Shown here piece after piece: positions 1 to 24,880 of a DNA stretch of 60,030 bases. Made by a program: the position numbers and the translations under genes. The notes below the pieces were generated by a model, which was not told the DNA's origin, did no database searches, and was given only the letters and a program-made list of their open reading frames with translations. Each line of letters begins with the position of its first letter. The stretch's first letter is position 1. The DNA is from Escherichia coli (GTDB lineage: Bacteria > Pseudomonadota > Gammaproteobacteria > Enterobacterales > Enterobacteriaceae), in assembly GCF_003334405.1 (NCBI RefSeq), contig NZ_QOWM01000020.1; one strand, 5' to 3'.

Positions 1-898
1 GTGGCTTGCGCAGTGCGGGCTGACGGTGGAGCAACTGGCCAGACAGGTGGAGCCGGAATACACACCGGCGCGAAAAGCTCATCTTTATCACTGCGACCAC
101 CGGGGACTGCCGCTGGCGCTTATCAGCGAAGACGGCAATACGGCGTGGAGCGCGGAATATGATGAATGGGGCAACCAGCTTAATGAGGAGAACCCGCATC
201 ATGTGTATCAGCCGTACCGTCTGCCAGGGCAGCAGCATGATGAGGAATCAGGGCTGTACTATAACCGTCACCGGTACTACGATCCGTTGCAGGGGCGGTA
301 TATTACTCAGGACCCGATGGGGTTGAAAGGGGGATGGAATTTATATCAGTATCCTTTAAATCCACTACAACAAATTGACCCTATGGGATTATTGCAGACT
401 TGGGATGATGCCAGATCTGGAGCATGTACGGGGGGAGTTTGTGGTGTTCTTTCACGTATAATAGGACCAAGTAAATTTGATAGTACTGCAGATGCTGCGT
501 TAGATGCTTTGAAAGAAACGCAGAATAGATCTCTATGTAATGATATGGAATACTCTGGTATTGTCTGTAAAGATACTAATGGAAAATATTTTGCATCTAA
601 GGCAGAAACTGATAATTTAAGAAAGGAGTCATATCCTCTGAAAAGAAAATGTCCCACAGGTACAGATAGAGTTGCTGCTTATCATACTCACGGTGCAGAT
701 AGTCATGGCGATTATGTTGATGAATTTTTTTCAAGTAGCGATAAAAATCTTGTAAGAAGTAAAGATAATAATCTTGAAGCATTTTATCTCGCAACACCTG
801 ATGGACGATTTGAGGCGCTTAATAATAAAGGAGAATATATTTTTATCAGAAATAGTGTCCCGGGATTGAGTTCAGTATGCATACCGTATCATGATTAA
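1..898 (+). CDS. rhsD: Rhs-family protein, 3' portion (gene continues upstream of window): conserved Rhs core end followed by a ~168-aa variable C-terminal toxin domain
   Basis: Frame is open to base 1. Translation carries the conserved Rhs core-end block ([13 protein letters not shown]...[13 protein letters not shown], PxxxxDPxGL hallmark) then unrelated tip sequence. Locus assignment to rhsD is by synteny with ybbC/selU/allS. Confidence 0.75.
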
Positions 899-937
899 TT
901 TTAGTGCTTTTATTAGTGGGGCCTATAAGGAGATTCA

Positions 938-1306
938 ATGAAATATAGTTCAATATTTTCGATGCTTTCATTTTTTATACTATTTGCCTGTAATGAGACA
1001 GCTGTTTACGGTTCTGATGAAAACATTATTTTTATGAGGTATGTGGAAAAATTACATTTAGATAAATACTCTGTTAAAAATACGGTAAAAACTGAAACAA
1101 TGGCGATACAATTAGCTGAAATATATGTTAGGTATCGCTATGGCGAACGGATTGCAGAAGAAGAAAAACCATATTTAATTACGGAACAACCAGATAGTTG
1201 GGTTGTTGAGGGAGCAAAGTTACCTTATGAAGTTGCGGGTGGTGTATTTATTATAGAAATTAATAAGAAAAATGGATGTGTTTTGAATTTCCTACATAGT
1301 AAATAA
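938..1306 (+). CDS. ybbC: Rhs-associated immunity protein (YbbC-like), 122 aa, N-terminal signal-peptide-like segment
   Basis: Small ORF immediately 3' of the Rhs tip, the typical toxin-immunity arrangement; hydrophobic N-terminus [10 protein letters not shown]. Confidence 0.65.
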
Positions 1307-2016
1307 TGCTGGCGCTGATGGATGCGGATGGAAACATTGCGTGGAGCGGGGAGTATGATGAGTGGGGCAACCAGCTGAATGAAGAGAACCCGCATCACCT
1401 GCACCAGCCGTACCGGCTGCCGGGGCAGCAGTATGATAAGGAGTCGGGGCTGTACTACAACCGGAACCGGTACTACGATCCGTTGCAGGGGCGGTATATC
1501 ACTCAGGACCCGATAGGGCTGGAGGGGGGATGGAGTCTGTATGCGTATCCGCTGAATCCGGTGAATGGTATTGATCCATTAGGGTTAAGTCCCGCAGATG
1601 TAGCGCTAATAAGAAGAAAAGATCAACTAAACCATCAAAGAGCATGGGATATATTATCTGATACTTATGAAGATATGAAGAGATTAAATTTAGGTGGGAC
1701 TGATCAATTTTTCCATTGTATGGCATTTTGTCGAGTGTCTAAATTAAATGACGCTGGTGTTAGCCGATCGGCGAAAGGGCTGGGTTATGAAAAAGAGATT
1801 AGAGATTACGGGTTAAATCTGTTCGGTATGTACGGCAGAAAAGTAAAGCTATCCCATTCTGAAATGATTGAAGATAATAAAAAAGACTTGGCTGTAAATG
1901 ACCATGGGTTGACATGTCCATCAACAACAGATTGCTCAGATAGATGTAGTGATTATATTAATCCAGAGCATAAAAAAACGATAAAGGCTTTACAAGATGC
2001 TGGCTATCTCAAGTAA
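1306..2016 (+). CDS. Orphan Rhs C-terminal fragment (YlbH-like): Rhs core-end remnant plus a different ~142-aa toxin tip
   Basis: Repeats the Rhs core-end block ([14 protein letters not shown]...[13 protein letters not shown]...[13 protein letters not shown]) at ~85% nucleotide identity to 128-360, then diverges. ATG overlaps the ybbC stop. Confidence 0.7.
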
Positions 2017-2026
2017 TCTATCAAAG

Positions 2027-2257
2027 ATGATAATATTTATTTTTGCTATTATAATCATTGTTGTTTTATGCGTAATTACTTATCTTTATTTATACAAAGA
2101 TGAATCTCTTGTAAGTAAACATTACATAAACTATATGGCAATACCAGAAAATGATGGAGTTTTTACATGGCTCCCAGATTTTTTTCCGCACGTAGCGGTG
2201 GATATATCAATATACACAAATGTAGAAGATGATTATTTTTTTCTTATTTTTCCCTAA
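2027..2257 (+). CDS. Putative immunity protein for the orphan Rhs tip (YbbD-like), small membrane protein
   Basis: ORF directly after the orphan tip; strongly hydrophobic N-terminus (MIIFIFAIIIIVVLCVITYLYLY). Alternative start at 1997. Confidence 0.5.
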   Translation: MIIFIFAIIIIVVLCVITYLYLYKDESLVSKHYINYMAIPENDGVFTWLPDFFPHVAVDISIYTNVEDDYFFLIFP

Positions 2258-2289
2258 CAAATGATGATGGGGGTAGGTTTAAGAAAACA

Positions 2290-2487
2290 TTGACAGTGAG
2301 GGCCAGGGAACAAGTGGCGAAAATCGTATCAAAGAATGATCCAGATACAAAAAAAGTGTGGTGTAAATATGGTAAGATACCAGGGCAAGGGGATGGTGTA
2401 AACCTTTTTTTTGTTGGTGAAATTAATGTTACGCATTATTTTATAACAAATATTGGAGCTGGATTGCCTGATGCTTGTGCAGAGTAA
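2290..2487 (+). CDS. Hypothetical small protein (65 aa), possibly a remnant of another immunity/orphan cassette
   Basis: ORF only; AT-rich Rhs-accessory context; no recognisable motif. Confidence 0.2.
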   Translation: MTVRAREQVAKIVSKNDPDTKKVWCKYGKIPGQGDGVNLFFVGEINVTHYFITNIGAGLPDACAE

Positions 2488-3001
2488 TTGCTTGAATTAA
2501 GAGTCTATCCCATATCGAAGTCGTCAACTTCGTAGTGAGGAAAAGTAAAATTCCTGACTGAGAAAAGACATGTCGGCTATTGTGTAAAGCCATATAGCTC
2601 AGACGATGAATATCTACTCGTATTCAGTTGTTTATTGAGGGTGAGTTCCGACCCTGAAACAACAAATAAAATGAACAGTCAGAGAGTTTACATAGAATTG
2701 CACTGGTCTTTTACGATATCTGACATTGTGTAATACATATTCAGCCATGCATTAATTAAAATGTTACGTGTTTAATGTGAGTCCCTATCTGAAAATAAAT
2801 AATCCTTCCGGATTAAAATAAATTCTTGCCGGGAAAGAAAGAGGAAATAAACCATTAGCGGAAAACCAGCGGCACGCCAGGGTGACATGCCCCAGTACGG
2901 CGGCCCGATAGTCCAGGGTTCAGCGGGGGTACTGATAGTCGCGCCGACTGCATCGAGAACTCCATACAACTTTTTACGGAACGTCACCTGATAAAATTTG
3001 T

Positions 3002-3409
3002 TCAGTATCGTCTTTTGAGATTCTCAAGGTTATGGAGTAACCAGACAGAACGGACACCACTGTCGGAGATAAAAACCCCCTGTTTACGCAGCTCGTTGCT
3101 GGCCCGGTGCTGACCATGTGTCGGGAAAGCGACGGCGTAATCAACAACAGCCTGTTCAGTTGCCTCATCGGTACGGTTCTTAAGGTTAGGAGCGCGGCGA
3201 CTACGATTAATCTGCGCATCCACACCGCCTTCAGCGACCAGTTCGCGGTAACGATAAAACGTATCACGCGAAACGCCCATGATTTTACAGGCTTTTGATA
3301 CGTTGCTGAGTTCTTCAGCCAGATTGAGCAAACCGGCTTTGTGTTTGATGACGGGATTGGCAGTATGAAGCATGAGAGTTACCTCTTGTTTTGGATAAGG
3401 ATTCGACAC
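3002..3409 (-). pseudogene. ylbG: Truncated transposase-like HTH protein fragment (YlbG-like), degenerate IS remnant
   Basis: 135-aa ORF with an N-terminal HTH resembling transposase N-termini (GVSRDTFYRYRELVAEGGVDA ... ELRKQGVFISDSGVRSVW); the reading frame breaks and continues in other frames (2772-3267), with no intact catalytic domain. Confidence 0.5.
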
Positions 3410-3488
3410 TCATATCAAAACCGGTAACTCTCAACCTTTCAAGGCCATGTGTCAGATCAAGTCGCGACTAATACAAATACGTCCCTCA

Positions 3489-4598
<1,110 letters not shown>

Positions 4599-4651
4599 TC
4601 AAATCAGCTTGCGCGCTATTTTACGCGCCAACGCGCAAGGAAACTTGATTT

Positions 4652-5578
4652 TTAACTGCGTGGGTTGCCGAAAATTTCTAAAAATCCGCTGATTTCCGGC
4701 CTGCGCTGGGTAAACAAGGTCACAATATCTTCTACCGCTTTGCCGCTGCCAAATTTGCGCCATGCCAGACTCAATGGCGAAGGAGGGCGCATCGTTGGGA
4801 TTACCCGGCTGACCAGTTGTTGATTATCGATCATTGACTGGCAAAGCGATTTTGGCAAAAAACCAATGCCAACGCCCGCCAGATGGGCGGCGATTTTCGT
4901 TTCCATATCGGGAACAATAATCTCTTTTTGCCCTGGCAATCGCCAGGCGACGCGTTTGGTTAAGGTGCGGGCGCTGTCTTCAATATTGACCGCCGGAAAG
5001 CGCCGCAACTGCGCTTCTGTTAGCGGCTCTTCAACGTTCGCCAGCGGATGATCCGCCGCCATGACAAAGCGCCATTGCACCGATCCTAAGGGATCAAGAC
5101 TAAAGGTATTTGCCAGCGCCTCAGTTCCCGTGACGCCGATAGCCAGCGAAAAACCTTCGTACAATAGCGAGTCCCAGACGCCCATATAGATTTGTCGGGA
5201 GATGTGAAACTGGGTAAAGGGGTAACGCTCATTCAGCCACGCCAGCAACTGGGCGACGGCCTGGGGGTTGTAGAGCAGGTTGTTGATGACAATATTCACC
5301 TGGCGTTCCACGCCATCATTCACCTGTTGCAGCTCGCTTGGCATACTTTCCAGCCAGCTCAGCCAGTCTCTGGCCTGGGAAAGTAGATGCTCGCCAGCCG
5401 CTGTCAACGTCACGCTGCGAGTCGTACGGAAAAACAGCGCTACTCCGGTATTCTCTTCCAGAAGTTTAATGCGATAACTGATCGTCGCCGTGGTTTTACA
5501 TAATCGTTCTGCCGCTTTTGAAAAACTTCCTGTTTCAGCAACCGCAATGAAAGTCCGCAAGGTTTCTGGATCGAACAT
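4652..5578 (-). CDS. allS: LysR-family transcriptional activator of allD
   Basis: 308 aa; N-terminal LysR HTH ([33 protein letters not shown]); divergent to allA. Confidence 0.9.
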
Positions 5579-5685
5579 CTTCAGGTATCCCCTTTTAAAT
5601 CCGCAAGTTGCGTGATTTTCTTATCCTCTGATTTATCAGTATTTTTACATGATAACCCTGTTCAATTTGTGGACTAAATCTAGTT

Positions 5686-5702
5686 TTGGAAAAATATTCC
5701 AA
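5686..5702. promoter_or_regulatory. Candidate AllR operator in the allS-allA intergenic region
   Basis: Near-perfect palindrome TTGGAAAAATATTCCAA; a paralogous palindrome lies upstream of gcl. Confidence 0.55.
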
Positions 5703-5807
5703 CTTTTGTATTGATGTTGTTCTCTTAAGGTTTTAGATTGCCTGTTATTGAAACCAAGCTGACCGGTCGGCGGTGGTTGAACGGAATTATGTTACAAGGA
5801 CAAAAAG

Positions 5808-6290
5808 ATGAAACTTCAGGTATTACCGTTAAGTCAGGAAGCCTTTAGTGCTTATGGCGACGTAATCGAAACGCAGCAACGGGATTTTTTCCATATTAAC
5901 AATGGCCTGGTGGAGCGTTACCACGATTTGGCGCTGGTTGAGATTCTTGAGCAAGACCGTACGCTTATCAGCATTAACCGCGCGCAACCGGCGAATCTGC
6001 CGCTGACCATTCACGAACTCGAACGTCATCCGCTGGGTACTCAGGCCTTTATCCCGATGAAAGGTGAGGTGTTTGTGGTGGTCGTGGCGTTAGGTGACGA
6101 CAAACCAGACCTGTCAACGCTGCGGGCGTTTATCACCAACGGCGAACAGGGAGTGAATTACCATCGTAACGTCTGGCATCACCCACTTTTCGCCTGGCAG
6201 CGCGTCACCGATTTTCTGACCATCGATCGCGGCGGCAGTGACAACTGTGATGTTGAAAGTATTCCTGAACAGGAACTCTGTTTTGCGTGA
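5808..6290 (+). CDS. allA: Ureidoglycolate lyase
   Basis: 160 aa; synteny between allS and allR. Confidence 0.9.
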
Positions 6291-9942: not shown

Positions 9943-10821
9943 ATGAAACTGGGATTTATTGGCTTAGGCATTATGGGTACACCGATGGCCATTAATCTGG
10001 CGCGTGCCGGTCATCAATTACATGTCACGACCATTGGACCGGTTGCTGATGAATTACTGTCACTGGGTGCCGTCAGTGTTGAAACTGCTCGCCAGGTAAC
10101 GGAAGCATCGGACATCATTTTTATTATGGTGCCGGACACACCTCAGGTTGAAGAAGTTCTGTTCGGTGAAAATGGTTGTACCAAAGCCTCGCTGAAGGGC
10201 AAAACCATTGTTGATATGAGCTCCATTTCCCCGATTGAAACTAAGCGTTTCGCTCGTCAGGTGAATGAACTGGGCGGCGATTATCTCGATGCGCCAGTCT
10301 CCGGCGGTGAAATCGGTGCGCGTGAAGGGACGTTGTCGATTATGGTTGGCGGTGATGAAGCGGTATTTGAACGTGTTAAACCGCTGTTTGAACTGCTCGG
10401 TAAAAATATCACCCTCGTGGGCGGTAACGGCGATGGTCAAACCTGCAAAGTGGCAAATCAGATTATCGTGGCGCTCAATATTGAAGCGGTTTCTGAAGCC
10501 CTGCTATTTGCTTCAAAAGCCGGTGCGGACCCGGTACGTGTGCGCCAGGCGCTGATGGGCGGCTTTGCTTCCTCACGTATTCTGGAAGTTCATGGCGAGC
10601 GTATGATTAAACGCACCTTTAATCCGGGCTTCAAAATCGCTCTGCACCAGAAAGATCTCAACCTGGCACTGCAAAGTGCGAAAGCACTTGCGCTGAACCT
10701 GCCAAACACTGCGACCTGCCAGGAGTTATTTAATACCTGTGCGGCAAACGGTGGCAGCCAGTTGGATCACTCTGCGTTAGTGCAGGCGCTGGAATTAATG
10801 GCTAACCATAAACTGGCCTGA
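9943..10821 (+). CDS. glxR: Tartronate semialdehyde reductase
   Basis: 292 aa; Rossmann motif GLGIMGTPMA; synteny. Confidence 0.9.
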   Translation: MKLGFIGLGIMGTPMAINLARAGHQLHVTTIGPVADELLSLGAVSVETARQVTEASDIIFIMVPDTPQVEEVLFGENGCTKASLKGKTIVDMSSISPIETKRFARQVNELGGDYLDAPVSGGEIGAREGTLSIMVGGDEAVFERVKPLFELLGKNITLVGGNGDGQTCKVANQIIVALNIEAVSEALLFASKAGADPVRVRQALMGGFASSRILEVHGERMIKRTFNPGFKIALHQKDLNLALQSAKALALNLPNTATCQELFNTCAANGGSQLDHSALVQALELMANHKLA

Positions 10822-10852
10822 TACCCGCAATAAAAATGGCCGATATCAGAAA

Positions 10853-11131
10853 ATGAATCGGCCAGCAATATTAAAAAAGAAAGCAGCCAAAGATGTTGCT
10901 TCAGTATTAAAAATAATATTTTTATTTTATTTGTTCCTCATAGCTAGATTAAAACAACGTTATTCGATACGTGAAATTAAGAGGGATTTATGGAACATCA
11001 GAGAAAACTATTCCAGCAACGCGGCTATAGCGAAGATCTATTGCCGAAAACGCAAAGCCAGCGGACCTGGAAAACATTTAACTATTTTACCTTATGGATG
11101 GGTTCGGTTCATAACGTTCCCAATTATGTGA
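10853..11131 (+). CDS. ybbV: Small ORF upstream of and overlapping the permease start (YbbV-like, 92 aa)
   Basis: ORF only; overlaps the ybbW start in another frame, so it may be non-coding leader. Confidence 0.25.
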   Translation: MNRPAILKKKAAKDVASVLKIIFLFYLFLIARLKQRYSIREIKRDLWNIRENYSSNAAIAKIYCRKRKASGPGKHLTILPYGWVRFITFPIM

Positions 11132-12444
11132 TGGTCGGCGGCTTTTTTATTCTCGGCTTGTCTACCTTTAGTATTATGCTGGCAATTATCCTCAGCGCCT
11201 TTTTCATTGCCGCGGTAATGGTATTAAACGGTGCTGCGGGCAGTAAATACGGTGTGCCTTTTGCCATGATCCTGCGTGCTTCTTACGGTGTACGTGGTGC
11301 ACTGTTTCCCGGATTATTAAGGGGCGGAATTGCCGCCATCATGTGGTTTGGTTTGCAATGTTACGCGGGGTCACTGGCCTGCTTGATTCTGATTGGCAAA
11401 ATCTGGCCGGGATTTTTAACTCTCGGTGGTGATTTCACTCTGTTAGGCCTTTCTCTACCGGGCTTAATTACTTTCTTAATCTTCTGGCTGGTCAACGTTG
11501 GTATAGGTTTTGGCGGTGGCAAAGTTTTAAATAAATTCACTGCCATTCTTAACCCGTGCATCTATATCGTTTTCGGCGGTATGGCGATTTGGGCGATTTC
11601 ACTGGTCGGGATCGGTCCAATCTTTGACTACATTCCGAGCGGTATTCAGAAAGCAGAAAACGGTGGCTTCCTGTTCCTGGTGGTGATTAACGCGGTAGTT
11701 GCGGTCTGGGCGGCACCGGCGGTGAGCGCATCCGACTTTACGCAAAACGCCCACTCGTTTCGTGAGCAGGCGCTGGGGCAAACGCTGGGTTTAGTTGTGG
11801 CCTATATTCTGTTTGCGGTCGCCGGGGTATGTATTATTGCCGGAGCCAGTATTCACTACGGCGCTGATACCTGGAACGTGCTGGATATTGTTCAGCGTTG
11901 GGACAGCCTGTTCGCCTCGTTCTTTGCGGTACTGGTTATTCTGATGACAACTATCTCCACTAACGCGACCGGTAATATTATTCCAGCCGGTTATCAGATT
12001 GCCGCCATTGCACCGACAAAACTGACCTATAAAAACGGCGTACTGATTGCCAGTATTATCAGCTTGCTGATCTGCCCGTGGAAATTAATGGAAAATCAGG
12101 ACAGCATTTATCTTTTCCTCGATATTATCGGCGGAATGCTTGGTCCGGTAATTGGTGTCATGATGGCGCATTATTTTGTGGTGATGCGCGGACAAATTAA
12201 TCTTGATGAACTGTATACCGCACCTGGCGATTATAAATATTACGATAACGGTTTTAACCTCACTGCGTTTTCAGTAACTCTGGTGGCCGTTATTTTATCT
12301 CTTGGCGGTAAGTTTATTCACTTTATGGAACCGTTATCGCGTGTTTCATGGTTTGTCGGCGTCATCGTCGCCTTTGCGGCCTACGCCTTATTAAAGAAAC
12401 GTACAACAGCAGAAAAAACAGGAGAGCAAAAAACCATAGGTTAA
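10990..12444 (+). CDS. ybbW: Allantoin permease, NCS1 family
   Basis: 484 aa polytopic membrane protein; synteny within the allantoin cluster. Confidence 0.9.
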   Translation: MEHQRKLFQQRGYSEDLLPKTQSQRTWKTFNYFTLWMGSVHNVPNYVMVGGFFILGLSTFSIMLAIILSAFFIAAVMVLNGAAGSKYGVPFAMILRASYGVRGALFPGLLRGGIAAIMWFGLQCYAGSLACLILIGKIWPGFLTLGGDFTLLGLSLPGLITFLIFWLVNVGIGFGGGKVLNKFTAILNPCIYIVFGGMAIWAISLVGIGPIFDYIPSGIQKAENGGFLFLVVINAVVAVWAAPAVSASDFTQNAHSFREQALGQTLGLVVAYILFAVAGVCIIAGASIHYGADTWNVLDIVQRWDSLFASFFAVLVILMTTISTNATGNIIPAGYQIAAIAPTKLTYKNGVLIASIISLLICPWKLMENQDSIYLFLDIIGGMLGPVIGVMMAHYFVVMRGQINLDELYTAPGDYKYYDNGFNLTAFSVTLVAVILSLGGKFIHFMEPLSRVSWFVGVIVAFAAYALLKKRTTAEKTGEQKTIG

Positions 12445-12503
12445 TTAATCCCGATATTGAACATTGAGTTAAAAACCAATCTGTATTTTACAAGGAGTTT
12501 GTT

Positions 12504-13865
12504 ATGTCTTTTGATTTAATCATTAAAAACGGCACCGTTATTTTAGAAAACGAAGCTCGCGTTGTAGATATCGCCGTTAAAGGCGGAAAAATTGCTGCTA
12601 TCGGTCAGGATCTGGGCGATGCAAAAGAAGTTATGGATGCGTCTGGTCTGGTGGTTTCGCCGGGCATGGTTGATGCGCACACCCATATTTCTGAACCGGG
12701 TCGTAGCCACTGGGAAGGTTATGAAACCGGTACTCGCGCAGCGGCAAAAGGTGGTATCACCACCATGATCGAAATGCCGCTCAACCAGCTGCCTGCAACG
12801 GTTGACCGCGCTTCAATTGAACTGAAGTTCGATGCCGCTAAAGGCAAGCTGACTATTGATGCGGCACAACTCGGTGGCCTGGTGTCTTACAACATCGACC
12901 GTCTGCATGAGCTGGATGAAGTGGGCGTTGTCGGCTTCAAATGCTTCGTTGCGACCTGTGGCGATCGCGGTATCGACAACGACTTCCGTGATGTAAACGA
13001 CTGGCAGTTCTTCAAAGGTGCGCAGAAGCTGGGCGAACTGGGTCAGCCGGTGCTGGTGCACTGCGAAAACGCGCTGATTTGTGACGAACTGGGCGAAGAA
13101 GCGAAGCGTGAAGGTCGCGTAACCGCTCATGACTATGTGGCTTCGCGTCCGGTATTTACCGAAGTGGAAGCAATTCGCCGCGTACTGTATCTGGCGAAAG
13201 TTGCTGGTTGCCGTCTGCACGTTTGCCACGTCAGCAGCCCGGAAGGTGTTGAGGAAGTGACTCGTGCACGTCAGGAAGGTCAGGACGTTACTTGTGAATC
13301 CTGCCCGCATTACTTTGTACTGGATACCGATCAGTTCGAAGAAATCGGTACTCTGGCGAAGTGTTCACCGCCGATCCGCGATCTGGAAAACCAGAAAGGC
13401 ATGTGGGAAAAACTGTTTAACGGTGAAATCGACTGCCTGGTTTCCGACCACTCTCCATGCCCGCCGGAAATGAAAGCCGGTAACATCATGAAAGCATGGG
13501 GCGGTATCGCCGGTCTGCAAAGCTGCATGGACGTGATGTTCGATGAAGCGGTACAGAAACGCGGTATGTCTCTGCCAATGTTCGGCAAATTAATGGCGAC
13601 TAACGCAGCAGATATTTTCGGTCTGCAGCAAAAAGGCCGTATCGCCCCAGGAAAAGATGCCGACTTCGTCTTCATTCAGCCGAATAGCAGCTATGTTCTT
13701 ACCAATGACGATCTGGAATATCGCCACAAAGTCAGCCCGTATGTTGGCCGTACCATTGGCGCGCGTATCACGAAAACCATCTTACGTGGTGATGTGATTT
13801 ACGACATTGAACAGGGCTTCCCTGTTGCGCCGAAAGGTCAATTTATCCTTAAACATCAGCAGTAA
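12504..13865 (+). CDS. allB: Allantoinase
   Basis: 453 aa; amidohydrolase metal-binding motifs (DAHTHI ... HVCHVSS). Confidence 0.9.
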
Positions 13866-13921
13866 TCTGGCCCCTGCAATGCCCGTCCTTGCGGCGGGCA
13901 TTCTCCGGTTAAGGTGTGTTT

Positions 13922-15223
13922 ATGTTCAATTTTGCAGTCAGCCGCGAAAGCCTGTTATCAGGATTTCAGTGGTTTTTCTTTATTTTTTGCAACACGGTTG
14001 TGGTTCCTCCTACGCTACTTTCTGCTTTTCAGTTGCCGCAAAGTAGCCTGCTTACGCTCACGCAATATGCTTTTCTTGCTACCGCACTGGCCTGCTTCGC
14101 TCAGGCGTTTTGCGGTCATCGTCGCGCTATTATGGAAGGGCCAGGTGGCCTGTGGTGGGGAACCATCCTTACTATCACCCTTGGTGAAGCATCGCGCGGG
14201 ACACCGATCAACGATATCGCCACCAGCCTGGCAGTGGGGATTGCACTCTCCGGCGTGCTGACGATGTTGATTGGTTTTAGCGGATTAGGCCATCGCCTGG
14301 CACGGTTATTTACGCCGTCGGTGATGGTCTTGTTTATGTTGATGCTGGGCGCGCAGCTGACCACTATCTTTTTCAAAGGTATGCTCGGGCTGCCGTTTGG
14401 CATAGCCGACCCGAATTTTAAAATTCAGTTACCGCCGTTCGCGCTCTCGGTGGCGGTGATGTGCCTGGTACTGGCGATGATTATCTTCCTGCCGCAACGT
14501 TTTGCCCGTTATGGCCTGCTGGTCGGCACCATAACCGGCTGGTTGTTGTGGTACTTTTGCTTTCCTTCTTCGCACTCGCTCTCCGGTGAGTTGCACTGGC
14601 AGTGGTTCCCGCTCGGCAGTGGCGGTGCTTTGTCGCCGGGAATTATTCTGACGGCGGTGATTACAGGTCTGGTAAATATCAGCAATACCTACGGTGCGAT
14701 TCGGGGCACGGATGTTTTTTATCCGCAGCAGGGCGCAGGGAATACGCGTTATCGTCGTAGCTTTGTGGCGACCGGATTTATGACGCTGATAACCGTACCG
14801 CTGGCGGTAATTCCATTTTCACCGTTTGTTTCATCCATTGGTTTATTAACCCAGACTGGCGATTACACGCGGCGTTCGTTTATTTATGGCAGCGTTATTT
14901 GCCTGCTGGTGGCGCTGGTTCCTGCACTCACGCGACTGTTTTGCAGTATCCCTTTACCCGTGAGTAGTGCGGTCATGCTGGTTTCTTATCTGCCTTTACT
15001 CTTTTCCGCGCTGGTGTTTAGCCAGCAAATAACGTTTACCGCTCGCAATATTTATCGACTCGCATTGCCGTTATTTGTCGGCATATTTTTAATGGCATTA
15101 CCGCCTGTGTATCTGCAAGACCTTCCATTAACGCTTCGTCCTCTGCTCAGTAACGGCTTATTGGTCGGGATTTTACTGGCTGTTCTTATGGATAACCTTA
15201 TTCCGTGGGAACGCATCGAATAA
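13922..15223 (+). CDS. ybbY: Putative purine/uracil permease (NCS2-like membrane protein)
   Basis: ~433 aa polytopic membrane protein; ATG at 13922 (track ORF uses GTG 13916). Confidence 0.85.
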   Translation: MFNFAVSRESLLSGFQWFFFIFCNTVVVPPTLLSAFQLPQSSLLTLTQYAFLATALACFAQAFCGHRRAIMEGPGGLWWGTILTITLGEASRGTPINDIATSLAVGIALSGVLTMLIGFSGLGHRLARLFTPSVMVLFMLMLGAQLTTIFFKGMLGLPFGIADPNFKIQLPPFALSVAVMCLVLAMIIFLPQRFARYGLLVGTITGWLLWYFCFPSSHSLSGELHWQWFPLGSGGALSPGIILTAVITGLVNISNTYGAIRGTDVFYPQQGAGNTRYRRSFVATGFMTLITVPLAVIPFSPFVSSIGLLTQTGDYTRRSFIYGSVICLLVALVPALTRLFCSIPLPVSSAVMLVSYLPLLFSALVFSQQITFTARNIYRLALPLFVGIFLMALPPVYLQDLPLTLRPLLSNGLLVGILLAVLMDNLIPWERIE

Positions 15224-15244
15224 TTTGTTGAAAAAGGATTGATA

Positions 15245-16390
15245 ATGAAGATTGTCATTGCGCCAGACTCTTTTAAAGAGAGCTTAAGTGCAGAAAAATG
15301 TTGTCAGGCAATTAAAGCCGGGTTTTCGACCCTCTTTCCCGATGCGAACTATATCTGTTTGCCGATAGCGGATGGCGGCGAAGGGACGGTGGATGCGATG
15401 GTCGCCGCGACGGGCGGCAACATCGTGACGCTTGAAGTCTGCGGGCCGATGGGCGAAAAAGTGAATGCTTTTTATGGCCTTACCGGCGACGGGAAAACGG
15501 CGGTGATTGAGATGGCGGCAGCAAGTGGCCTGATGCTGGTCGCGCCTGAAAAGCGTAATCCGTTGCTGGCCTCCAGTTTTGGTACGGGGGAGTTAATTCG
15601 TCATGCGCTGGATAACGACATTCGCCATATTATTCTCGGCATTGGCGGCAGTGCGACGGTCGACGGCGGTATGGGCATGGCGCAGGCGCTCGGTGTGCGT
15701 TTCCTTGATGCCGACGGTCAGGCGCTGGCGGCAAACGGTGGTAATTTAGCGCGCGTGGCAAGCATTGAGATGGATGAATGCGATCCGCGTCTGGCGAATT
15801 GCCATATTGAAGTAGCATGTGACGTTGATAACCCGCTGGTAGGGGCACGCGGCGCGGCGGCGGTGTTTGGCCCGCAAAAAGGGGCAACGCCGGAGATGGT
15901 CGAAGAACTTGAACAGGGGCTGCAAAATTACGCCCGTGTTTTACAACAGCAAACTGAAATTAATGTCTGCCAGATGGCGGGCGGCGGCGCTGCGGGCGGT
16001 ATGGGTATTGCGGCGGCGGTATTTCTCAATGCGGATATTAAACCGGGCATTGAAATTGTGTTGAATGCGGTCAATCTTGCGCAGGCAGTGCAGGGCGCAG
16101 CACTGGTGATTACCGGGGAAGGGCGCATCGACTCGCAAACGGCAGGCGGTAAAGCGCCGCTGGGTGTGGCGTCGGTGGCGAAGCAGTTTAATGTACCGGT
16201 GATTGGGATTGCTGGCGTATTGGGTGATGGCGTGGAAGTGGTGCACCAGTACGGCATTGACGCGGTATTCAGCATTTTGCCTCGTCTGGCACCTTTAGCC
16301 GAAGTGCTCGCCAGCGGTGAAACCAATCTCTTCAACAGCGCGCGAAATATTGCCTGCGCCATTAAAATAGGTCAGGGAATTAAAAACTAA
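15245..16390 (+). CDS. glxK: Glycerate kinase II
   Basis: ~381 aa, [14 protein letters not shown] start. Confidence 0.9.
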
Positions 16391-16439
16391 CCCTTACCTT
16401 TAAAGCGGATGCGATTTATATCGCATAAGAGTGCAGTAC

Positions 16440-16550
16440 TCATGCCGGATGCGGCATGAGTACCATATCCTTCCTGAAAATCGCGCAAATTCTATATATT
16501 GCAGAGATCATGTAGGCCTGATAAGCGAAGCGCATCAGGCAATGTTACAA
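16440..16550. repeat. REP (repetitive extragenic palindrome) elements
   Basis: REP-type palindromes (GCCGGATGCGGC; GTAGGCCTGATAAGCG...CGCATCAGGCA) between convergent glxK and allE. Confidence 0.7.
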
Positions 16551-16617
16551 AAAAAGCCACGGTATAAACCGTGGCAAAATCCAACATAGCTAAAAATAAT
16601 CAGGCGAGTGGTATGAC

Positions 16618-17403
16618 TTAAATCTCTACGTCGCGGTTACAATCTTTCGAGTAAATATAGCTGAACGCTTCACCACGCCCTACACCATAACCAGCCTGTA
16701 AAGAATAAGCGCCCATAAAGATGTAATCGCCTTTTTTCACCGGGATCCAGTTATTGTCGAGGTTATAAACCCCCTGACCGGAAAGAATATAGGCACCGTG
16801 TTCCTGAACGTGTGTTTCGATATAACCGTGGCTGGCACCTGGTGCAAAAGAGAGGATATGCATGTTCATATCAAAACCTAACTCTTTGGGCAGAAAATCC
16901 AGCAGAATAACATCGTCCATGCCTTCATAATGAATGCGTTCCAGTTCGCTGGCATTGCCAGAAACCAGCCACGGTGCATAGCCTTCTACCGGAACATAGC
17001 GGCGCTTATATAAAAAGATTTGGCTGTCTTCGGCCTGGGCGTTAACAAACGTCATTAAGGAGCCTGGCGGGCAATAAAGATAGCCACCTTCGCTTAAGGC
17101 AAATGTTTTGCCTTCGGCTTTGGCAGTGATATTTCCAGAGATCACATACAGGAACGTTTCAATGCCTTCGCCACCGAAGCCCTGTTGGTTGCCACCGTTT
17201 TGATGCAGTGTGACCAGATAATCAACAAAAGAGGCACCCAGCTTTGGCGTGGAGAGGATTGTCGCGTCACAATTTTCAAAGCCCGGAATAATATTTTTTA
17301 CCAGACCATCCGGGGTTAACAGTGCGAAATTACCGTGTTTAACAATCGCACGGTTAGCCAGTAAATCTTCGCGGTAACCGGTGACGTTATTTAAATATCC
17401 CAT
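16618..17403 (-). CDS. allE: (S)-ureidoglycine aminohydrolase, bicupin
   Basis: 261 aa; synteny. Confidence 0.9.
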   Translation of the reverse strand: MGYLNNVTGYREDLLANRAIVKHGNFALLTPDGLVKNIIPGFENCDATILSTPKLGASFVDYLVTLHQNGGNQQGFGGEGIETFLYVISGNITAKAEGKTFALSEGGYLYCPPGSLMTFVNAQAEDSQIFLYKRRYVPVEGYAPWLVSGNASELERIHYEGMDDVILLDFLPKELGFDMNMHILSFAPGASHGYIETHVQEHGAYILSGQGVYNLDNNWIPVKKGDYIFMGAYSLQAGYGVGRGEAFSYIYSKDCNRDVEI

Positions 17404-17413
17404 TTATGACTCC

Positions 17414-18649
17414 TTATTTCTGCCAGGCAAGTTGATAAAGCATGAGTGCCAACGTTTTGACCCCTTCGGCAAGGTCGGTAATATTGGTGCGTTCCGCCGG
17501 GTTATGGCTGATCCCGTTGATGCTGGGGATAAAAATCATGCAGGTTGGTACGCGAGGCGCGAAAATTTGCGCGTCGTGCCCGGCACCACTGTGCATCACC
17601 CGGTAATTCAGTTTTTCTCTTTCACACAATTCTGTCAGGGTGGCGACCAGCTCCTTATTCATCGGCACGGGTTCTTCGTCCATCCATAAATCGATATCAA
17701 TACCAATGTCCATTTCATCGCAAATCGCCCGCATGTCGTTTTCTAACTGTTGGGTGAAATCGCGCAGCACGGCAGCGTCGGTATGACGACAATCAATGGT
17801 GAACGTGGTTTTACCCGGCACCACATTTACCGTATTCGGGCGCGGCTCTACTTTGCCAAAGGTCAGAACCAGCGGATCGCCCATCCTTTTCGCTTTTTCG
17901 ACCGACTGATGGCAAATGCGACTGAAAGCGTAAACTGTATCACGACGATAACCCATCGGCGTGGTGCCTGCATGGTTTGATTCGCCGTTCAGCGTTACCG
18001 TATAACGACGCTGCCCGACAATTGCATTCACCACGCCAATTGATTGCCCATTACTTTCCAGCACACAGCCCTGTTCAATATGCAGTTCAACAAAGGCTTT
18101 AATATCCTGACGCGGAGTTAGTGGGGCGTTCGGAAGAGTAAATCCGCAAGCCTTCATCGCATCGACAAAACTATTTCCTTTGGCATCACAGATATTCCGC
18201 ACGTCGTCAGGATTCGCCAGCCCAAAAATATTTTTACTGCCCCAGAAGACATACGGGAAGCGGCTGCCTTCTTCTTCTGCCATCGCCACCACTTCGACCG
18301 TACGTAGCGGCGCGCCGTATTGCGTTTTCAGCCAGTCAATTGCCAGCCACGCCGCCAGCGCGCCGAATTGCCCGTCAAGGTTACCGCCGTTAACCACGGT
18401 ATCGATATGCGAACCGCTCAGAACCACTTCCTGTGGATATTCGGTGCCATTCAGGCGACCGTATAAATTCCCCACTTCATCGAAACGTGTTTCCAGCCCG
18501 CTTGCTGCCATTCTTTTTTTAAATTGCTGCTGGGTTTCCAGCCATTCCGGCGAATAAAGTAAACGGGTCATCCCACCCGCTGGGTCAGCGCCAAAAGAGG
18601 AAAGCCAGGGCAGCGTTTCTTCTATAGCTTGACGGAAATGTGTAATCAT
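17414..18649 (-). CDS. allC: Allantoate amidohydrolase (M20 peptidase family)
   Basis: ~411 aa from MITHFRQAIE. Confidence 0.9.
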   Translation of the reverse strand: MITHFRQAIEETLPWLSSFGADPAGGMTRLLYSPEWLETQQQFKKRMAASGLETRFDEVGNLYGRLNGTEYPQEVVLSGSHIDTVVNGGNLDGQFGALAAWLAIDWLKTQYGAPLRTVEVVAMAEEEGSRFPYVFWGSKNIFGLANPDDVRNICDAKGNSFVDAMKACGFTLPNAPLTPRQDIKAFVELHIEQGCVLESNGQSIGVVNAIVGQRRYTVTLNGESNHAGTTPMGYRRDTVYAFSRICHQSVEKAKRMGDPLVLTFGKVEPRPNTVNVVPGKTTFTIDCRHTDAAVLRDFTQQLENDMRAICDEMDIGIDIDLWMDEEPVPMNKELVATLTELCEREKLNYRVMHSGAGHDAQIFAPRVPTCMIFIPSINGISHNPAERTNITDLAEGVKTLALMLYQLAWQK

Positions 18650-18670
18650 AAGAAAGTCCTGTCTCAATAA

Positions 18671-19720
18671 TTATTGCGCAAAGGGATTTTTCGTTTCGTA
18701 TGACGTGTTATAAAGCGCGTCGGAAATTAAATACTGGTAAATATCATCAACAATTTCGATGCCTTCGACGGCGGCTTTGCGTTGTTTAATATCCTGATCC
18801 TGTCCGGGATAATAAACCTGATTAAAACCGGGCGCGGGGGTAATGGCATTTAATTCGCGCATGGTCTGGCTAAGATGTTGACGGAATAATTCGCTGGAGG
18901 AGAAAAAGTTCGGATTAATAACTATATGTAATTGCCCCAAATTACGCCCTGCGTGTAAATCGTCATACATCGAACTAACCTGTCGCCCGAACGGTAAGCC
19001 GAGTAAGACGCCTGAGAGGACGTCAATCATCATCATCAGGCCATACCCTTTTGGCCCGGCGGCGGGGAGCAGAGCATGTACCGCGAACGGATCGGTTGTT
19101 GGTACACCGTTTTTATCGACCGCCCAGGTATCCGGGATAGACATATTACGCGAGCGGGCGTCGAGCACTTTTCCCCATGCCTGTACGGTAGTCGCCATAT
19201 CAAAGGTAAGGATCTCGTCGCCTTCTCCCGGCGCGGCAAAGGCCAGGGGGTTAGTACCGTAGTAAATTTCCGCGCCGCCAAACGGCACCACCATTGGATC
19301 GGACTGGCACATCGAAATGCCAATGAATCCGGCGCGGGCTGCCTGCTGCACAAAATAAGAGATTGCGCCGCTGTGACCCATCCGGCTGATACCGACCACC
19401 GCAACGCCATTTTGCTGGGCGGTTTTGATGGCATGTTCCATACCCATTTTCGCCGCGACCTGTCCGGCGGCATTGTCGGCATGTAAAATTGCCGAGCACG
19501 GCCCGGTTTCCTCAAGACGAAACTCCGGTTCGCGGTTGGTGCCGCCTTTTGAAATGCGTTCCGCGTAGTATTCCACGCGCACCGCGCCATGAGAGTGGAT
19601 CCCTCTGGCATCGGCGTAAACCAATACTTCAGCCACGGTTGCAGCGTGCTCACGTTTTAACCCAGCCTGGCAGAGTTTATTCTCAATTAGCTGGTGGAGT
19701 GTTTCCCGACTGATTTTCAT
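18671..19720 (-). CDS. allD: Ureidoglycolate dehydrogenase
   Basis: 349 aa; synteny. Confidence 0.9.
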   Translation of the reverse strand: MKISRETLHQLIENKLCQAGLKREHAATVAEVLVYADARGIHSHGAVRVEYYAERISKGGTNREPEFRLEETGPCSAILHADNAAGQVAAKMGMEHAIKTAQQNGVAVVGISRMGHSGAISYFVQQAARAGFIGISMCQSDPMVVPFGGAEIYYGTNPLAFAAPGEGDEILTFDMATTVQAWGKVLDARSRNMSIPDTWAVDKNGVPTTDPFAVHALLPAAGPKGYGLMMMIDVLSGVLLGLPFGRQVSSMYDDLHAGRNLGQLHIVINPNFFSSSELFRQHLSQTMRELNAITPAPGFNQVYYPGQDQDIKQRKAAVEGIEIVDDIYQYLISDALYNTSYETKNPFAQ

Positions 19721-20036
19721 CTGTCTTCCTTTTTAACGACGGTGTGAAGCATGACTGCAATTAACATACAGGGAAAATATCTGGATTATGTGATCCAGAC
19801 AGGCAAGAAAATATAGTTAGAATTTATTTGATAATCCGCTCACTTTTAACCTGATTTTTAAAACAACCACGCTTATTAAAAAATAATGAGTAATAGCCTG
19901 GCGGTTATTTGAATTCTTTTGTTAATAATTCCTGTGTGATATTCATCACCTTATTTACTCGTTGTCATCGATACCGTAATCGCCACATTAACACTGCTCG
20001 TGCAATTGCCATGGGTGCAATTTTTAAGGAGTTGTT

Positions 20037-21704: not shown

Positions 21705-21713
21705 GGGGTTCCC

Positions 21714-22973
21714 ATGTTTACATCAGTGGCGCAAGCCAATGCTGCGGTTATCGAACAAATTCGTCGCGCTCGTCCACACTGGCTGGATGTGCAACCGGCT
21801 TCTTCACTTATCAGCGAACTAAACCAGGGCAAAACACTGCTTCACGCCGGGCCGCCAATGCGCTGGCAGGAGATGACCGGACCTATGAAAGGGGCGTGCG
21901 TGGGCGCATGTCTGTTCGAAGGTTGGGCGAAAGATGAAGCGCAGGCGCTGGCAATACTGGAGCAGGGGGAAGTGAACTTCATTCCTTGTCACCATGTGAA
22001 TGCCGTCGGGCCAATGGGCGGTATTACTTCTGCCAGTATGCCGATGCTGGTGGTCGAGAACGTGACCGACGGCAACCGGGCGTACTGCAACCTCAACGAA
22101 GGTATCGGCAAAGTGATGCGTTTTGGCGCTTATGGCGAAGATGTCCTGACTCGCCATCGCTGGATGCGCGATGTGTTAATGCCAGTATTAAGCGCGGCGC
22201 TGGGGCGCATGGAGCACGGTATCGATCTCACGGCGATGATGGCGCAGGGCATTACCATGGGCGATGAGTTCCATCAACGCAATATTGCTTCCTCAGCACT
22301 GTTAATGCGTACGCTGGCCCCACAAATTGCTCGCCTCGATCATGATAAACAGCACATTGCGGAAGTGATGGATTTCCTCAGCGTGACCGATCAGTTCTTC
22401 CTCAACCTCGCGATGGCCTACTGCAAGGCGGCGATGGATGCTGGCGCGATGATCCGCGCAGGCAGCATCGTTACGGCTATGACCCGCAACGGCAATATGT
22501 TCGGGATTCGGGTAAGCGGGCTGGGTGAACGCTGGTTTACTGCGCCTGTAAACACTCCGCAAGGTCTGTTTTTCACCGGCTTCTCGCAGGAGCAGGCGAA
22601 CCCGGATATGGGCGATAGCGCGATTACCGAAACCTTTGGTATCGGAGGTGCGGCAATGATCGCAGCGCCTGGCGTAACGCGCTTTGTCGGTGCGGGTGGC
22701 ATGGAAGCGGCCAGGGCGGTATCTGAAGAGATGGCGGAAATTTACCTTGAACGCAATATGCAGTTGCAGATCCCAAGCTGGGATTTTCAGGGCGCCTGCC
22801 TGGGACTGGACATTCGTCGCGTGGTAGAAACCGGTATTACGCCACTCATCAATACCGGTATCGCCCATAAAGAGGCGGGGATCGGGCAGATTGGCGCAGG
22901 CACCGTGCGGGCACCGCTGGCGTGTTTTGAACAGGCGCTGGAAGCACTGGCTGAAAGCATGGGGATTGGTTGA
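21714..22973 (+). CDS. ylbE: DUF1116-family protein, uninterrupted reading frame
   Basis: 419-aa continuous ORF; I recall it as frameshifted in MG1655. Confidence 0.85.
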
Positions 22974-22983
22974 GGAACGCACA

Positions 22984-24689: not shown

Positions 24690-24699
24690 TCGTAGGCAT

Positions 24700-24880
<181 letters not shown>

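Follow-up and report, generated by a model that had tools for sequence, protein, structure and literature searches.

An rhsD-ybbC-ylbH-ybbD locus of Escherichia coli: a main rhs gene, an orphan SAA-like tip and a frameshifted partner gene

Results

The 3' end of an Rhs element at ybbP-mnmH

The window, a 60,030-nt stretch of Escherichia coli DNA, opens in the 3' end of an Rhs element at ybbP-mnmH, the rhsD-ybbC-ylbH-ybbD locus. These gene names had been guessed correctly in an earlier reading made without database searches (the sequence-only reading): bases 1-3500 differ at one base from the rhsD-ybbC-ylbH-ybbD-ylbI-ylbG region of E. coli K-12 MG1655, with the same gene order, the same two core-end copies, the same two tips and the same frameshift in ybbD. 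The single difference is A for T at 1188, a rare variant that makes YbbC Leu84Gln. In K-12, the rhsD locus is "position 3" of Jackson et al. (2009, PMC2935791), between ybbA/ybbP and ybbB/mnmH. The window is not K-12 itself, since divergence from MG1655 begins at about 19.8 kb; there are two differences across the first 9.5 kb and none in the compared stretch 10,031-19,806, and beyond about 19.8 kb the window matches strains 300709, ML35 and UMNF18 at 100% identity.

The downstream edge of the Rhs element is ylbI (2851-2945, plus strand), a remnant of an rhs 5' end whose translation (SGKPAARQGDMPQYGGPIVQGSAGV...) covers RHS_core positions 1-32. In the alignment to the 5' end of rhsD, homology begins exactly at codon 2, and ATT stands where the start codon belongs. 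The element boundary before mnmH is ylbG, an N-terminal fragment of an IS481-family transposase on the minus strand (NF033577, E 2.8e-25, profile positions 2-112 of 284; also so annotated), which spans 3002-3409 as a mechanical ORF and 3008-3373 in the PGAP annotation.

The main rhs gene and its JAB-type tip

The window holds only the last 898 nt of rhsD (1-898, plus strand), in a frame open from base 2; another 3383 nt of the gene precede position 1. This part consists of the core end (1-361), the PxxxxDPxGL motif (362-391), the C-terminal tip (392-895) and the stop codon (896-898). Besides the match to K-12, the assignment rests on NF041261 RHS_core (positions 1141-1261 of 1261, E 2.2e-75), TIGR03696 Rhs_assc_core (1-76 of 76, 86 bits against a cutoff of 32.5) and Pfam RHS. 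The K-12 rhsD gene, whose 3' flank is one base off the window, is 4281 nt long; its product begins MSGKPAARQGD..., contains DUF6531 (E 7.5e-19) and matches Pfam PAAR_motif only at E 0.098.

The RhsD tip (392-898, plus strand; 168 aa and the stop codon) is a DUF4329 domain (Pfam, E 2.5e-37, residues 156-275 of the 290-aa ORF). DUF4329 is the Tox-JAB-2 family, with the motif E, H[ST]H, S, D and the partner Imm-NTF2-2 (Zhang et al. 2012, PMC3482391, Table 3). The locus has both halves of that pairing: an H-T-H ... S-S-S-D signature is visible by eye in the tip, and the adjacent ybbC (938-1306, plus strand), an intact gene of 122 codons annotated as YbbC/YhhH family, matches Pfam Imm-NTF2-2 (E 1.9e-25) and is the predicted cognate immunity gene. 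In K-12, RhsB-CT and YhhH form a paralogous pair. By family membership, the tip is predicted to be a metal-dependent hydrolase toxin, the activity being a prediction in the Tox-JAB-2 family as it is here. Views differ on its target: Zhang et al. proposed a nuclease, and later in-silico papers speak of an "RNase." A signal- or lipobox-like segment (...FILFAC) appears in the hydropathy of the YbbC N terminus, and a lipoprotein-like YbbC would instead point to a periplasmic target. An AlphaFold2 (AF2) model of the tip, built on a seven-row alignment of mostly error-laden read-level sequences, was unusable (mean pLDDT 37.3), so no fold search was made with it; a sequence search of the tip against the PDB gave no matches even at E 10.

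A core-end repeat ahead of two unrelated tips

The end of the rhsD core recurs downstream of ybbC. The sequence-only reading had placed a core-end block at about 128-360 and again at 1322-1565, with about 85% nucleotide identity, and had proposed an alignment of 100-400 with 1300-1600. A repeat search returned a single long direct repeat, 112-391 (plus strand, on the main gene) and 1308-1587, with 80% ungapped identity over 280 nt and a spacing of 1196, so that the proposed alignment does show strong nucleotide identity. Within the 60-kb window, the best ungapped match to 128-360 outside itself is 1324-1556, at 83.7% identity, which puts the proposed second copy right to within a few bases; background offsets taken every 7 nt from position 3000 onward gave a mean of 25% and a maximum of 37%. 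Homology begins abruptly at GCTGGCGCT (112/1308), in the second copy directly 3' of the ybbC stop codon, fades past about 345/1541 in the identity profile, and is absent by about 400/1596. No perfectly matching stretch exceeds 34 nt (270-303). The core-end blocks have a GC content of 55-64%, against 25-42% in the tips and downstream ORFs; past the motif of the main gene, it drops to 30-43%.

Both copies match the RHS core and Rhs-associated-core models through the final model position, and both have a PxxxxDPxGL motif, at 362-391 and 1558-1587. The blocks had been described as ending in this motif; it sits just after 128-360 and 1324-1556 rather than inside them. What follows the motif is unrelated between the copies, as had been claimed: 168 aa with DUF4329 after the first and 142 aa resembling serum amyloid A (SAA) after the second.

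ylbH, an orphan rhs fragment with an SAA-like tip

The second copy opens ylbH (1306-2016, plus strand), which comprises the core end (1308-1587, with its motif at 1558-1587), the tip (1588-2013) and the stop codon (2014-2016). Its ATG at 1306 overlaps the ybbC stop codon (TAATG) and opens an in-frame ORF of 236 aa. The core segment corresponds to RHS_core positions 1169-1261 of 1261, and PGAP names the product [quoted passage not shown] Thus, ylbH has the marks of an orphan rhs-CT: a 5'-truncated core fragment, its own DPxGL, and a tip different from that of the main gene.

The orphan tip (1588-2016, plus strand; 142 aa and the stop codon) matches Pfam SAA at E 1.3e-3. Word-indexed homologue searches with either tip, or with YbbD, reach only close relatives; the SAA family was reached by exhaustive HMMER searching, which found 92 homologues of the tip among 1.84 billion representatives, many of them after a DPxGL motif. 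The link to SAA is transitive, in that the tip matches P0164 (E 4.5e-5) and P0164 matches human SAA1 (E 5.3e-18), while the direct match to SAA in the PDB reaches only E 0.3. In an alignment of 40 sequences, one row of which is human SAA1, D39, H43, E70, D100 and N104 are invariant and G107 is nearly so. An AF2 model built without templates, from an alignment that includes the human SAA1 row, is a helical bundle with pLDDT 96.7 and pTM 0.89, and the top seven Foldseek matches of this model in the PDB are all SAA (probability 1.00, target TM 0.67-0.74).

Sequence and model together predict that the orphan tip belongs to the prok-SAA family of the Lipocone superfamily and would target the head groups of lipids or lipid carriers at the membrane. 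Prok-SAA domains have been described as polymorphic-toxin tips whose immunity proteins are transmembrane proteins or lipoproteins (Burroughs et al. 2025, PMC12419801). With that family, and with the TelC/TipC lipid II phosphatase toxin system treated in the same work, the locus shares an SAA-like bundle at an Rhs C terminus; the conserved polar positions, including sNxxG in helix 4, and a partner with a predicted membrane anchor are further likenesses to prok-SAA. Unlike those systems, this locus has the domain as an orphan that lacks a delivery module, beside a broken partner gene. Enzymatic activity is a prediction throughout the prok-SAA toxins. The SAA motif reported in 2020 in RhsD (Z0651) of EHEC EDL933 (PMC7216683) is this tip in the attached state; the toxin tip of the O157:H7 "RhsD" described as having a serum-amyloid-A motif and that of the K-12 pseudogene ylbH are thus one and the same.

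ybbD is split by a deletion in a T run

The gene after the orphan tip is ybbD, and its 5' part (1997-2257, plus strand) overlaps the end of ylbH by 20 nt. This part encodes an 86-aa product, truncated by a frameshift, that matches NF011298 positions 1-85 of 163 and carries an N-terminal transmembrane helix (Kyte-Doolittle 3.37 over 19 residues). The 3' part (2258-2487, plus strand; NF011298 positions 99-163 of 163) is out of frame and appears as a mechanical ORF of 65 aa at 2290-2487 or a PGAP ORF of 57 aa at 2314-2487. The cause is visible in the alignment with strain 23CRST032 and with the strain C012 allele, which is identical except for its T8 and encodes 163 aa: a T7 run at 2236-2242 (plus strand) replaces the T8 run of intact alleles. 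Hence, ybbD is split by a 1-nt deletion and is not intact here. A small ORF had been claimed downstream of each tip, and both exist, but only ybbC is whole, the second being split as above. The stronger claim of two effector/immunity pairs, each with its own immunity gene, holds for ybbC and fails for ybbD: the second pair is not intact, because ybbD is frameshifted. The place directly after the orphan tip, where an intact cognate immunity gene would be expected, is occupied by this broken allele, while other strains have intact 163-aa alleles.

The 3' part has further variable runs, A7 at 2349-2355 (A6 or A7 in other strains) and T8 at 2405-2412 (T7, T8 or T9). About 70% of a spread sample of genomes have ybbD frameshifted, and the match lengths in that sample (n = 59 genomes) fall into classes of 491 nt (26), 492 nt (17), 490 nt (11) and 493 nt (5). 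Additional frameshifts in other runs occur in O157:H7, ESY003 and 504211. Between the E. coli and Hafnia alleles, the ybbD tail has a dN/dS of about 0.38 and was therefore under purifying selection until recently. Since ybbD is frameshifted in most sampled genomes, including strains that carry the SAA-like tip on a full-length Rhs protein, this state is due an explanation before assays are undertaken.

Pfam found no significant family in intact YbbD with the library copy used, and PF26610 (YbbD_head) is listed in the precomputed matches of YbbD homologues. In Hafnia alvei, the order is main rhs gene, 166-aa ORF, orphan SAA tip and ybbD. In CP029992.1, an SAA tip 56% identical to that of YlbH is followed by a YbbD_head protein 31% identical to YbbD, which by hydropathy has an N-terminal transmembrane helix, as stated for prok-SAA partners (PMC12419801).

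Attached and orphan states at the same chromosomal site

Comparison with rhsD-ybbC-ylbH-ybbD loci of other E. coli genomes, a check that the sequence-only reading had proposed, found the same array in K-12 and alternative alleles elsewhere. In O157:H7, 23CRST032 and C012, ybbP-mnmH holds one full-length rhs gene that ends in the SAA tip, with neither a JAB tip nor ybbC. The O157:H7 gene passes from one core-end copy to the other inside the repeat: all 11 informative sites at 124-142 are of the copy-1 type, sites 153-187 are mixed, and all 43 from 202 onward are of the copy-2 type, with 1098 of 1101 nt matching from 1386 to 2487. The switch thus falls at copy-1 coordinates 142-202, in the pattern that a single crossover would produce. 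The proposal that the repeat lets tip/immunity cassettes be swapped by homologous recombination is therefore backed by natural alleles. Among 5426 complete genomes, 2738 have the SAA-like tip with ybbD, 1855 have the JAB tip with ybbC, and 1757 have the whole K-12-type array. A recent origin of the O157:H7 allele by deletion from the K-12 array was rejected: in the 520 nt that precede the repeat, the two cores are only 92% identical, so these alleles are not a simple recent parent-product pair.

Discussion

The main-plus-orphan architecture of this locus is already known, since it is the published Rhs arrangement: annotation of the E. coli K-12 locus goes back decades, and the logic was established by accounts of tip displacement via circular intermediates (Jackson et al. 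2009, PMC2935791), of orphan modules with RhsI immunity (Poole et al. 2011, PMC3150448) and of experiments that showed main/orphan recombination in Salmonella (Koskiniemi et al. 2014, PMC3967940). As a discovery, the locus matters little. Its value is as a clean population-wide example: thousands of sequenced E. coli genomes have either the orphan or the attached exchange state at a single chromosomal site, and the breakpoint maps to an interval of about 60 nt in the core end.

The nearest experimental model is rhs-main (STM0291) with rhs-CT-orphan (STM0292) of Salmonella Typhimurium LT2, which likewise has a full-length rhs gene, an immunity gene, and an orphan with a different tip and its own immunity gene, and where recombination between the shared core segments joins the orphan tip to the main gene (PMC3967940). 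The LT2 toxins differ from those here. The Salmonella locus lies in the SPI-6 type VI secretion system (T6SS) island and both of its immunity genes are intact, whereas this locus has no adjacent vgrG or T6SS genes and the immunity gene of its orphan is frameshifted. Toxicity and immunity have been demonstrated in Salmonella and are predicted for the pairs here; a full-text literature search found no experiments on RhsD-CT/YbbC or YlbH-CT/YbbD. The Salmonella repeat is 522 bp long at 95% identity, against about 250-280 nt at 80-84% here; with about 84% identity and no perfect block longer than 34 nt, present-day recombination at this locus may be very rare, and a rate far below that of the Salmonella model is to be expected.

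Several features of the locus also recall the cases of Jackson et al. and Poole et al.: a dissociated tip is flagged by a GC-rich piece of core end, a given tip may be attached in one strain and free in another, and full-length genes elsewhere carry tips that are otherwise orphans. Exchange would run by homologous recombination within the core, perhaps via a circular intermediate. Jackson et al. gave an E. coli example only for a clade IV locus and described clade I loci as generally lacking dissociated tips. The present locus, of clade I with a dissociated tip, is an exception to that description, and a widespread one (about 1750 of 5426 genomes).

Very probably, then, this is a polymorphic-toxin locus built by C-terminal displacement, with a decaying spare cassette as its second module. 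The main gene would encode a YD-repeat shell protein whose core ends in PxxxxDPxGL and carries the Tox-JAB-2/DUF4329 tip, with ybbC as its predicted immunity gene, and downstream would lie an older module made up of about 280 nt of core end, the SAA-like tip (together ylbH) and ybbD, whose product is a partner with a predicted membrane anchor. One homologous exchange inside the shared core end would link the attached and orphan states: insertion of core end, JAB tip and ybbC as one 1196-bp unit would displace the SAA tip to the orphan position, and the reverse crossover would delete that unit and rejoin the SAA tip to a full-length gene, as in O157:H7. Integration and excision are mirror images, so the direction of exchange cannot be inferred from them; the direction and timing given here are presumptive, as is delivery by a T6SS. 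Both tips are presumed to be toxic, with YbbC and YbbD protecting against them. In the present sequence, the second module is not a working toxin/immunity pair. We regard it as a decaying spare cassette because it is an orphan without a delivery domain and its ybbD is inactivated by the 1-nt deletion.

The array could instead be a non-functional fossil, its repeat left from one ancient insertion and neither pair active. We consider this unlikely, though it deserves some weight. K-12, which like B strains has no T6SS, carries the same locus with 1 base in 3500 different; besides the broken ybbD, some strains have internal stops in rhsD, the two repeat copies have drifted to about 84% identity, Rhs and IS fragments (ylbI and ylbG) lie directly downstream, and H-NS is flagged at the rhsD promoter. 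However, about 1890 genomes carry intact rhsD and ybbC at 99% identity or more, the ybbD tail evolved under constraint until recently, and both states, attached and orphan, are found segregating within E. coli. Moreover, a fossil reading concerns present-day activity only and does not conflict with the structure or origin set out in the displacement account.

The homopolymer tracts of ybbD might also act as a switch, either by slipped-strand phase variation (T7/T8, in replication) or by -1 ribosomal or transcriptional slippage (UA-U UUU UUU-C), in which case members of one clone could switch immunity to an SAA-like, membrane-targeting Rhs toxin on or off. Slippage by -1 in the U UUU UUU of 2236-2242 would restore exactly the intact protein (..DDYFF|SYFSLT..), run lengths at three tracts are all that separates near-identical E. 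coli alleles, and the match-length classes in the spread sample range over 490-493 nt; the idea keeps its standing because the diverged Hafnia alvei allele is also T7, with the downstream frame open and under purifying selection. Nevertheless, we judge a switch very improbable: the fold of 2243-2330 gives no stimulatory RNA structure downstream of the T7 run (z = 0.79), the extra frameshifts in O157:H7, ESY003 and 504211 look like decay, homopolymer errors in long-read assemblies may account for some of the length variants, and diverged YbbD homologues (71% identical; a 173-aa protein in L008) are plain intact ORFs.

Marginally less probable still is an internally expressed toxin-antitoxin-like module without recombination or export. 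YlbH alone would be made, either through coupling of the ATG at 1306 to the ybbC stop or under an internal promoter, and would act in the producer with YbbD as antitoxin, in the manner reported for main and orphan Rhs tips in Salmonella. The overlapping ATG, the internal promoters and toxic internally started product of Salmonella rhs-CTs, the same promoter upstream of E. coli Rhs toxins (both Starsta et al. 2020) and the in-vitro RpoD-holoenzyme binding sites listed in the ylbH>ybbD and ybbD>ylbI spacers speak for it, but an active intracellular toxin is hard to square with a frameshifted ybbD here and in about 70% of the sample, the predicted site of action of the SAA-like family is the membrane's outer face, with transmembrane or lipoprotein immunity, and the orphan has no export signal, no Shine-Dalgarno sequence is seen by eye before 1306, and a scan of 1-3500 found promoter- and terminator-like sites no commoner than in shuffles (11 versus 9.8 and 2 versus 2.3).

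Orphan cdiA-CT/cdiI modules of contact-dependent inhibition (CDI) loci offer an analogy to this locus, being spare tip/immunity cassettes 3' of a main gene that are preceded by its pre-tip homology (VENN there, DPxGL in Rhs); the likeness does not extend to membership, and CDI delivery, by two-partner secretion rather than Rhs/T6SS, uses unrelated proteins.

An annotated K-12 rhs locus in a window that departs from K-12

The sequence-only reading had pointed to the rhsD-ybbC-ylbH-ybbD loci of other E. coli genomes for comparison, and the match is nearly exact: E. coli K-12 MG1655 differs from positions 1-3500 at a single base, and at least 80% of this interval is carried by 1757 of 5426 complete E. 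coli genomes. In MG1655 the annotated gene order is ybbP, rhsD (4281 nt), ybbC, ylbH, the two halves of ybbD, ylbI, ylbG, mnmH and allS; the window begins 3383 nt inside rhsD and holds the final 898 nt of this main gene. The MG1655 record lists the ybbD halves as two short hypothetical ORFs and ylbI as a truncated hypothetical ORF. It names the orphan ylbH [quoted passage not shown] and ylbH is the name of this gene in the K-12 nomenclature. The locus is thus already known and annotated. The mechanism is also already published, with rhs tip displacement described by Jackson et al. 2009 (PMC2935791). What the present analysis adds is the finding that K-12 ylbH carries the same SAA-type tip as O157 RhsD, the ybbD frameshift with its homopolymer polymorphism, and a mapped breakpoint between the attached and detached states.

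Only two differences from MG1655 occur in the first 9500 bases, at positions 1188 and 5958; the latter is T in MG1655 and C in the window and, by its coordinate, falls on the first position of allA codon 51 (TGT to CGT). Past ~19.8 kb, dense SNPs appear and register is then lost, a divergence that rules out K-12 itself as the source. Over the interval 19,700-24,700 the identity is 100% with strains 300709, ML35, UMNF18 and others. The loss of K-12 likeness at ~19.8 kb implies either a non-K-12 source strain or a recombination boundary near fdrA/allD.

Two predicted toxin tips behind a repeated core end

A repeat search returned one long direct repeat, 112-391 in rhsD (copy 1) against 1308-1587 in ylbH (copy 2), 280 nt at 80% identity with a spacing of 1196. 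That the core-end block occurs twice, as first claimed, is borne out by 83.7% identity between 128-360 and 1324-1556, against a background mean of 25% and maximum of 37% at offsets sampled over the remaining window. Homology starts at GCTGGCGCT, immediately 3' of the ybbC stop codon, and weakens past ~345/1541; the longest perfect block within the repeat is 34 nt. Both copies match the last positions of NCBIfam RHS_core and the entire Rhs_assc_core, and both do end in the proposed PxxxxDPxGL-type motif (nt 362-391 and 1558-1587). GC content is 55-64% in the core-end blocks but drops to 25-42% over both tips and the small ORFs, as is classic for Rhs cores and their extensions.

The rhsD tip (tip 1; 392-895, 168 aa) matches DUF4329 (E = 2.5e-37), named Tox-JAB-2 by Zhang et al. 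2012 (PMC3482391), a predicted metal-dependent hydrolase with the signature E, H[ST]H, S, D and the immunity pairing Imm-NTF2-2. Tip 1 contains HTH ... SSSD, and its partner ybbC (938-1306) encodes an Imm-NTF2-2 protein (E = 1.9e-25) with a signal/lipobox-like N terminus (..FILFAC). Published proposals for the tip's target differ, with a nuclease suggested in PMC3482391 and "RNase" used in later in silico papers. The AlphaFold model of tip 1 (pLDDT 37) did not yield a fold, and no solved relative of it was found by sequence. Position 1188 is A in the window and T in K-12 and every complete genome listed; with A, ybbC codon 84 reads CAA instead of CTA (Leu84Gln), a substitution that lies within the Imm-NTF2-2 domain. 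Records of the Gln84 form come from only 7 contigs, those of the Leu84 form from at least 1000.

The ylbH tip (tip 2; 1588-2013, 142 aa) has a weak Pfam SAA match (E = 1.3e-3). Exhaustive HMMER searching recovered 92 homologues; many lie directly after a DPxGL motif, C-terminal in longer proteins, and one matched human serum amyloid A1 at 5e-18. Residues D39, H43, E70, D100 and N104 are invariant in a 40-sequence alignment, and the AlphaFold model (pLDDT 96.7) has SAA structures as all of its best seven PDB matches. Tip 2 belongs to "prok-SAA", a family within the Lipocone superfamily. PMC12419801 describes this family as forming the tips of polymorphic toxins, with a predicted cleavage of head groups on lipids or lipid carriers and with immunity proteins that are transmembrane or lipoproteins; YbbD has a strong N-terminal transmembrane helix. 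An SAA motif was previously noted in "RhsD" (Z0651) of EHEC EDL933 (PMC7216683), and the tip of that protein is tip 2 in its attached state. A full-text literature search found no experiments on tip 1, tip 2, YbbC or YbbD.

Probable exchange within the repeat

The proposal that the repeat serves as a recombination substrate finds its support in natural alleles. At the ybbP-mnmH site, O157:H7, 23CRST032 and C012 each carry a single full-length rhs gene (4197-4212 nt) with tip 2 attached directly, and the JAB tip and ybbC are absent from that site. Copy 1 and copy 2 can be told apart at 60 sites, and these served to map the breakpoint. In O157:H7, all 11 sites at 124-142 are of copy-1 type, those at 153-187 are mixed, and from 202 onward 43/43 are of copy-2 type, which places the switch inside the repeat; 1098/1101 nt match window positions 1386-2487. 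This pattern is the signature expected of a single exchange within the repeat. Such an exchange would have integrated or excised a unit of 1196 bp that comprises the core end, the JAB tip and ybbC; the direction cannot be told because the two are mirror images. Upstream of the repeat the O157:H7 and K-12-type cores are only 92% identical, so that other core recombination has taken place too, and the 23CRST032 pattern is more mosaic than that of O157:H7. Tip 2 with ybbD is present in 2738 of the 5426 genomes, tip 1 with ybbC in 1855 and the full array in 1757, counts that fit two common states.

Main/orphan recombination was shown in Salmonella across 522 bp at 95% identity (Koskiniemi et al. 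2014, PMC3967940). The two copies in the window are shorter and have diverged further, their longest perfect block being 34 nt; on this comparison, present-day exchange should be much rarer than in Salmonella.

Frameshifts in ybbD

Linkage of tip 2 to ybbD is conserved. In Hafnia alvei FMIQ01000046.1 (locus positions 3001-4075) the order is a main rhs gene, with a tip different from tip 1, then a 166-aa ORF, an orphan SAA tip and lastly ybbD. CP029992.1 carries an SAA tip of 56% identity and, behind it, a 173-aa YbbD_head protein 31% identical to YbbD. The CP029992.1 locus (1832-6183) is a longer spare-cassette array than that of the window, with ORFs having weak Ntox16 and DUF6714 matches, then the rhs fragment with the SAA-type tip and YbbD_head, then TseH and Imm58 genes.

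The claim that each tip has its own immunity gene holds only in part: both downstream genes are present and ybbC is of the Imm-NTF2-2 type, but ybbD is broken in the window. Its 5' part (1997-2257, 86 aa) covers positions 1-85 of the 163 of NF011298, and its 3' part (2290-2487), in a different frame, covers positions 99-163. The split arises because the run at 2236-2242 is T7, versus T8 in intact alleles; C012 ybbD equals the window gene plus one extra T in that run and encodes 163 aa. Near-identical E. coli alleles differ in run length alone, at 2236-2242 (T7/T8), 2349-2355 (A6/A7) and 2405-2412 (T7/T8/T9). With a 491-nt query against a spread sample of 59 genomes, the match spanned 490 nt in 11 genomes, 491 nt in 26, 492 nt in 17 and 493 nt in 5; of these lengths, 492 nt alone keeps the frame. 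Given 17/59 in frame, ~70% of sampled ybbD look frameshifted, a rough figure, some long-read assemblies miscounting homopolymers. In O157:H7, whose full-length Rhs bears the SAA-type toxin, ybbD nevertheless has two frameshifts.

A -1 slip on UA-U UUU UUU-C would restore the exact intact protein sequence, and Hafnia ybbD is likewise T7 with an open downstream frame despite ~13% nucleotide divergence. The out-of-frame tail has a dN/dS of ~0.38 between E. coli and Hafnia, equal to that of the head, which indicates translation that lasted until recently or continues today. However, RNA folding found no stimulatory structure downstream of the T7 run (z = 0.79) and several strains carry second frameshifts; we consider regulation of YbbD, by such a slip or by T7/T8 phase variation, very unlikely. 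The simplest explanation is that ybbD is decaying at runs prone to slippage.

K-12 and B strains are without a T6SS. An internally expressed toxin-antitoxin-like role, known for Salmonella (Starsta et al. 2020), would be possible in principle for ylbH-ybbD in that the ATG at 1306 shares bases with the ybbC stop codon, but it is hard to square with a frameshifted ybbD and with a class of toxins whose predicted site of action lies outside the cytoplasm, and seems to us very improbable.

The downstream edge

The ylbI remnant (2851-2945), reading SGKPAARQGDMPQYGGPIVQGSAGV.., shares ~80% identity with the rhsD 5' end. Homology starts exactly at codon 2, with ATT replacing ATG and none upstream, and suggests that a second rhs gene once began here. 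Adjoining this 5' remnant, ylbG (3002-3409, minus strand) covers profile positions 2-112 of 284 of an IS481-family transposase. This N-terminal fragment probably shows where the truncation lies.
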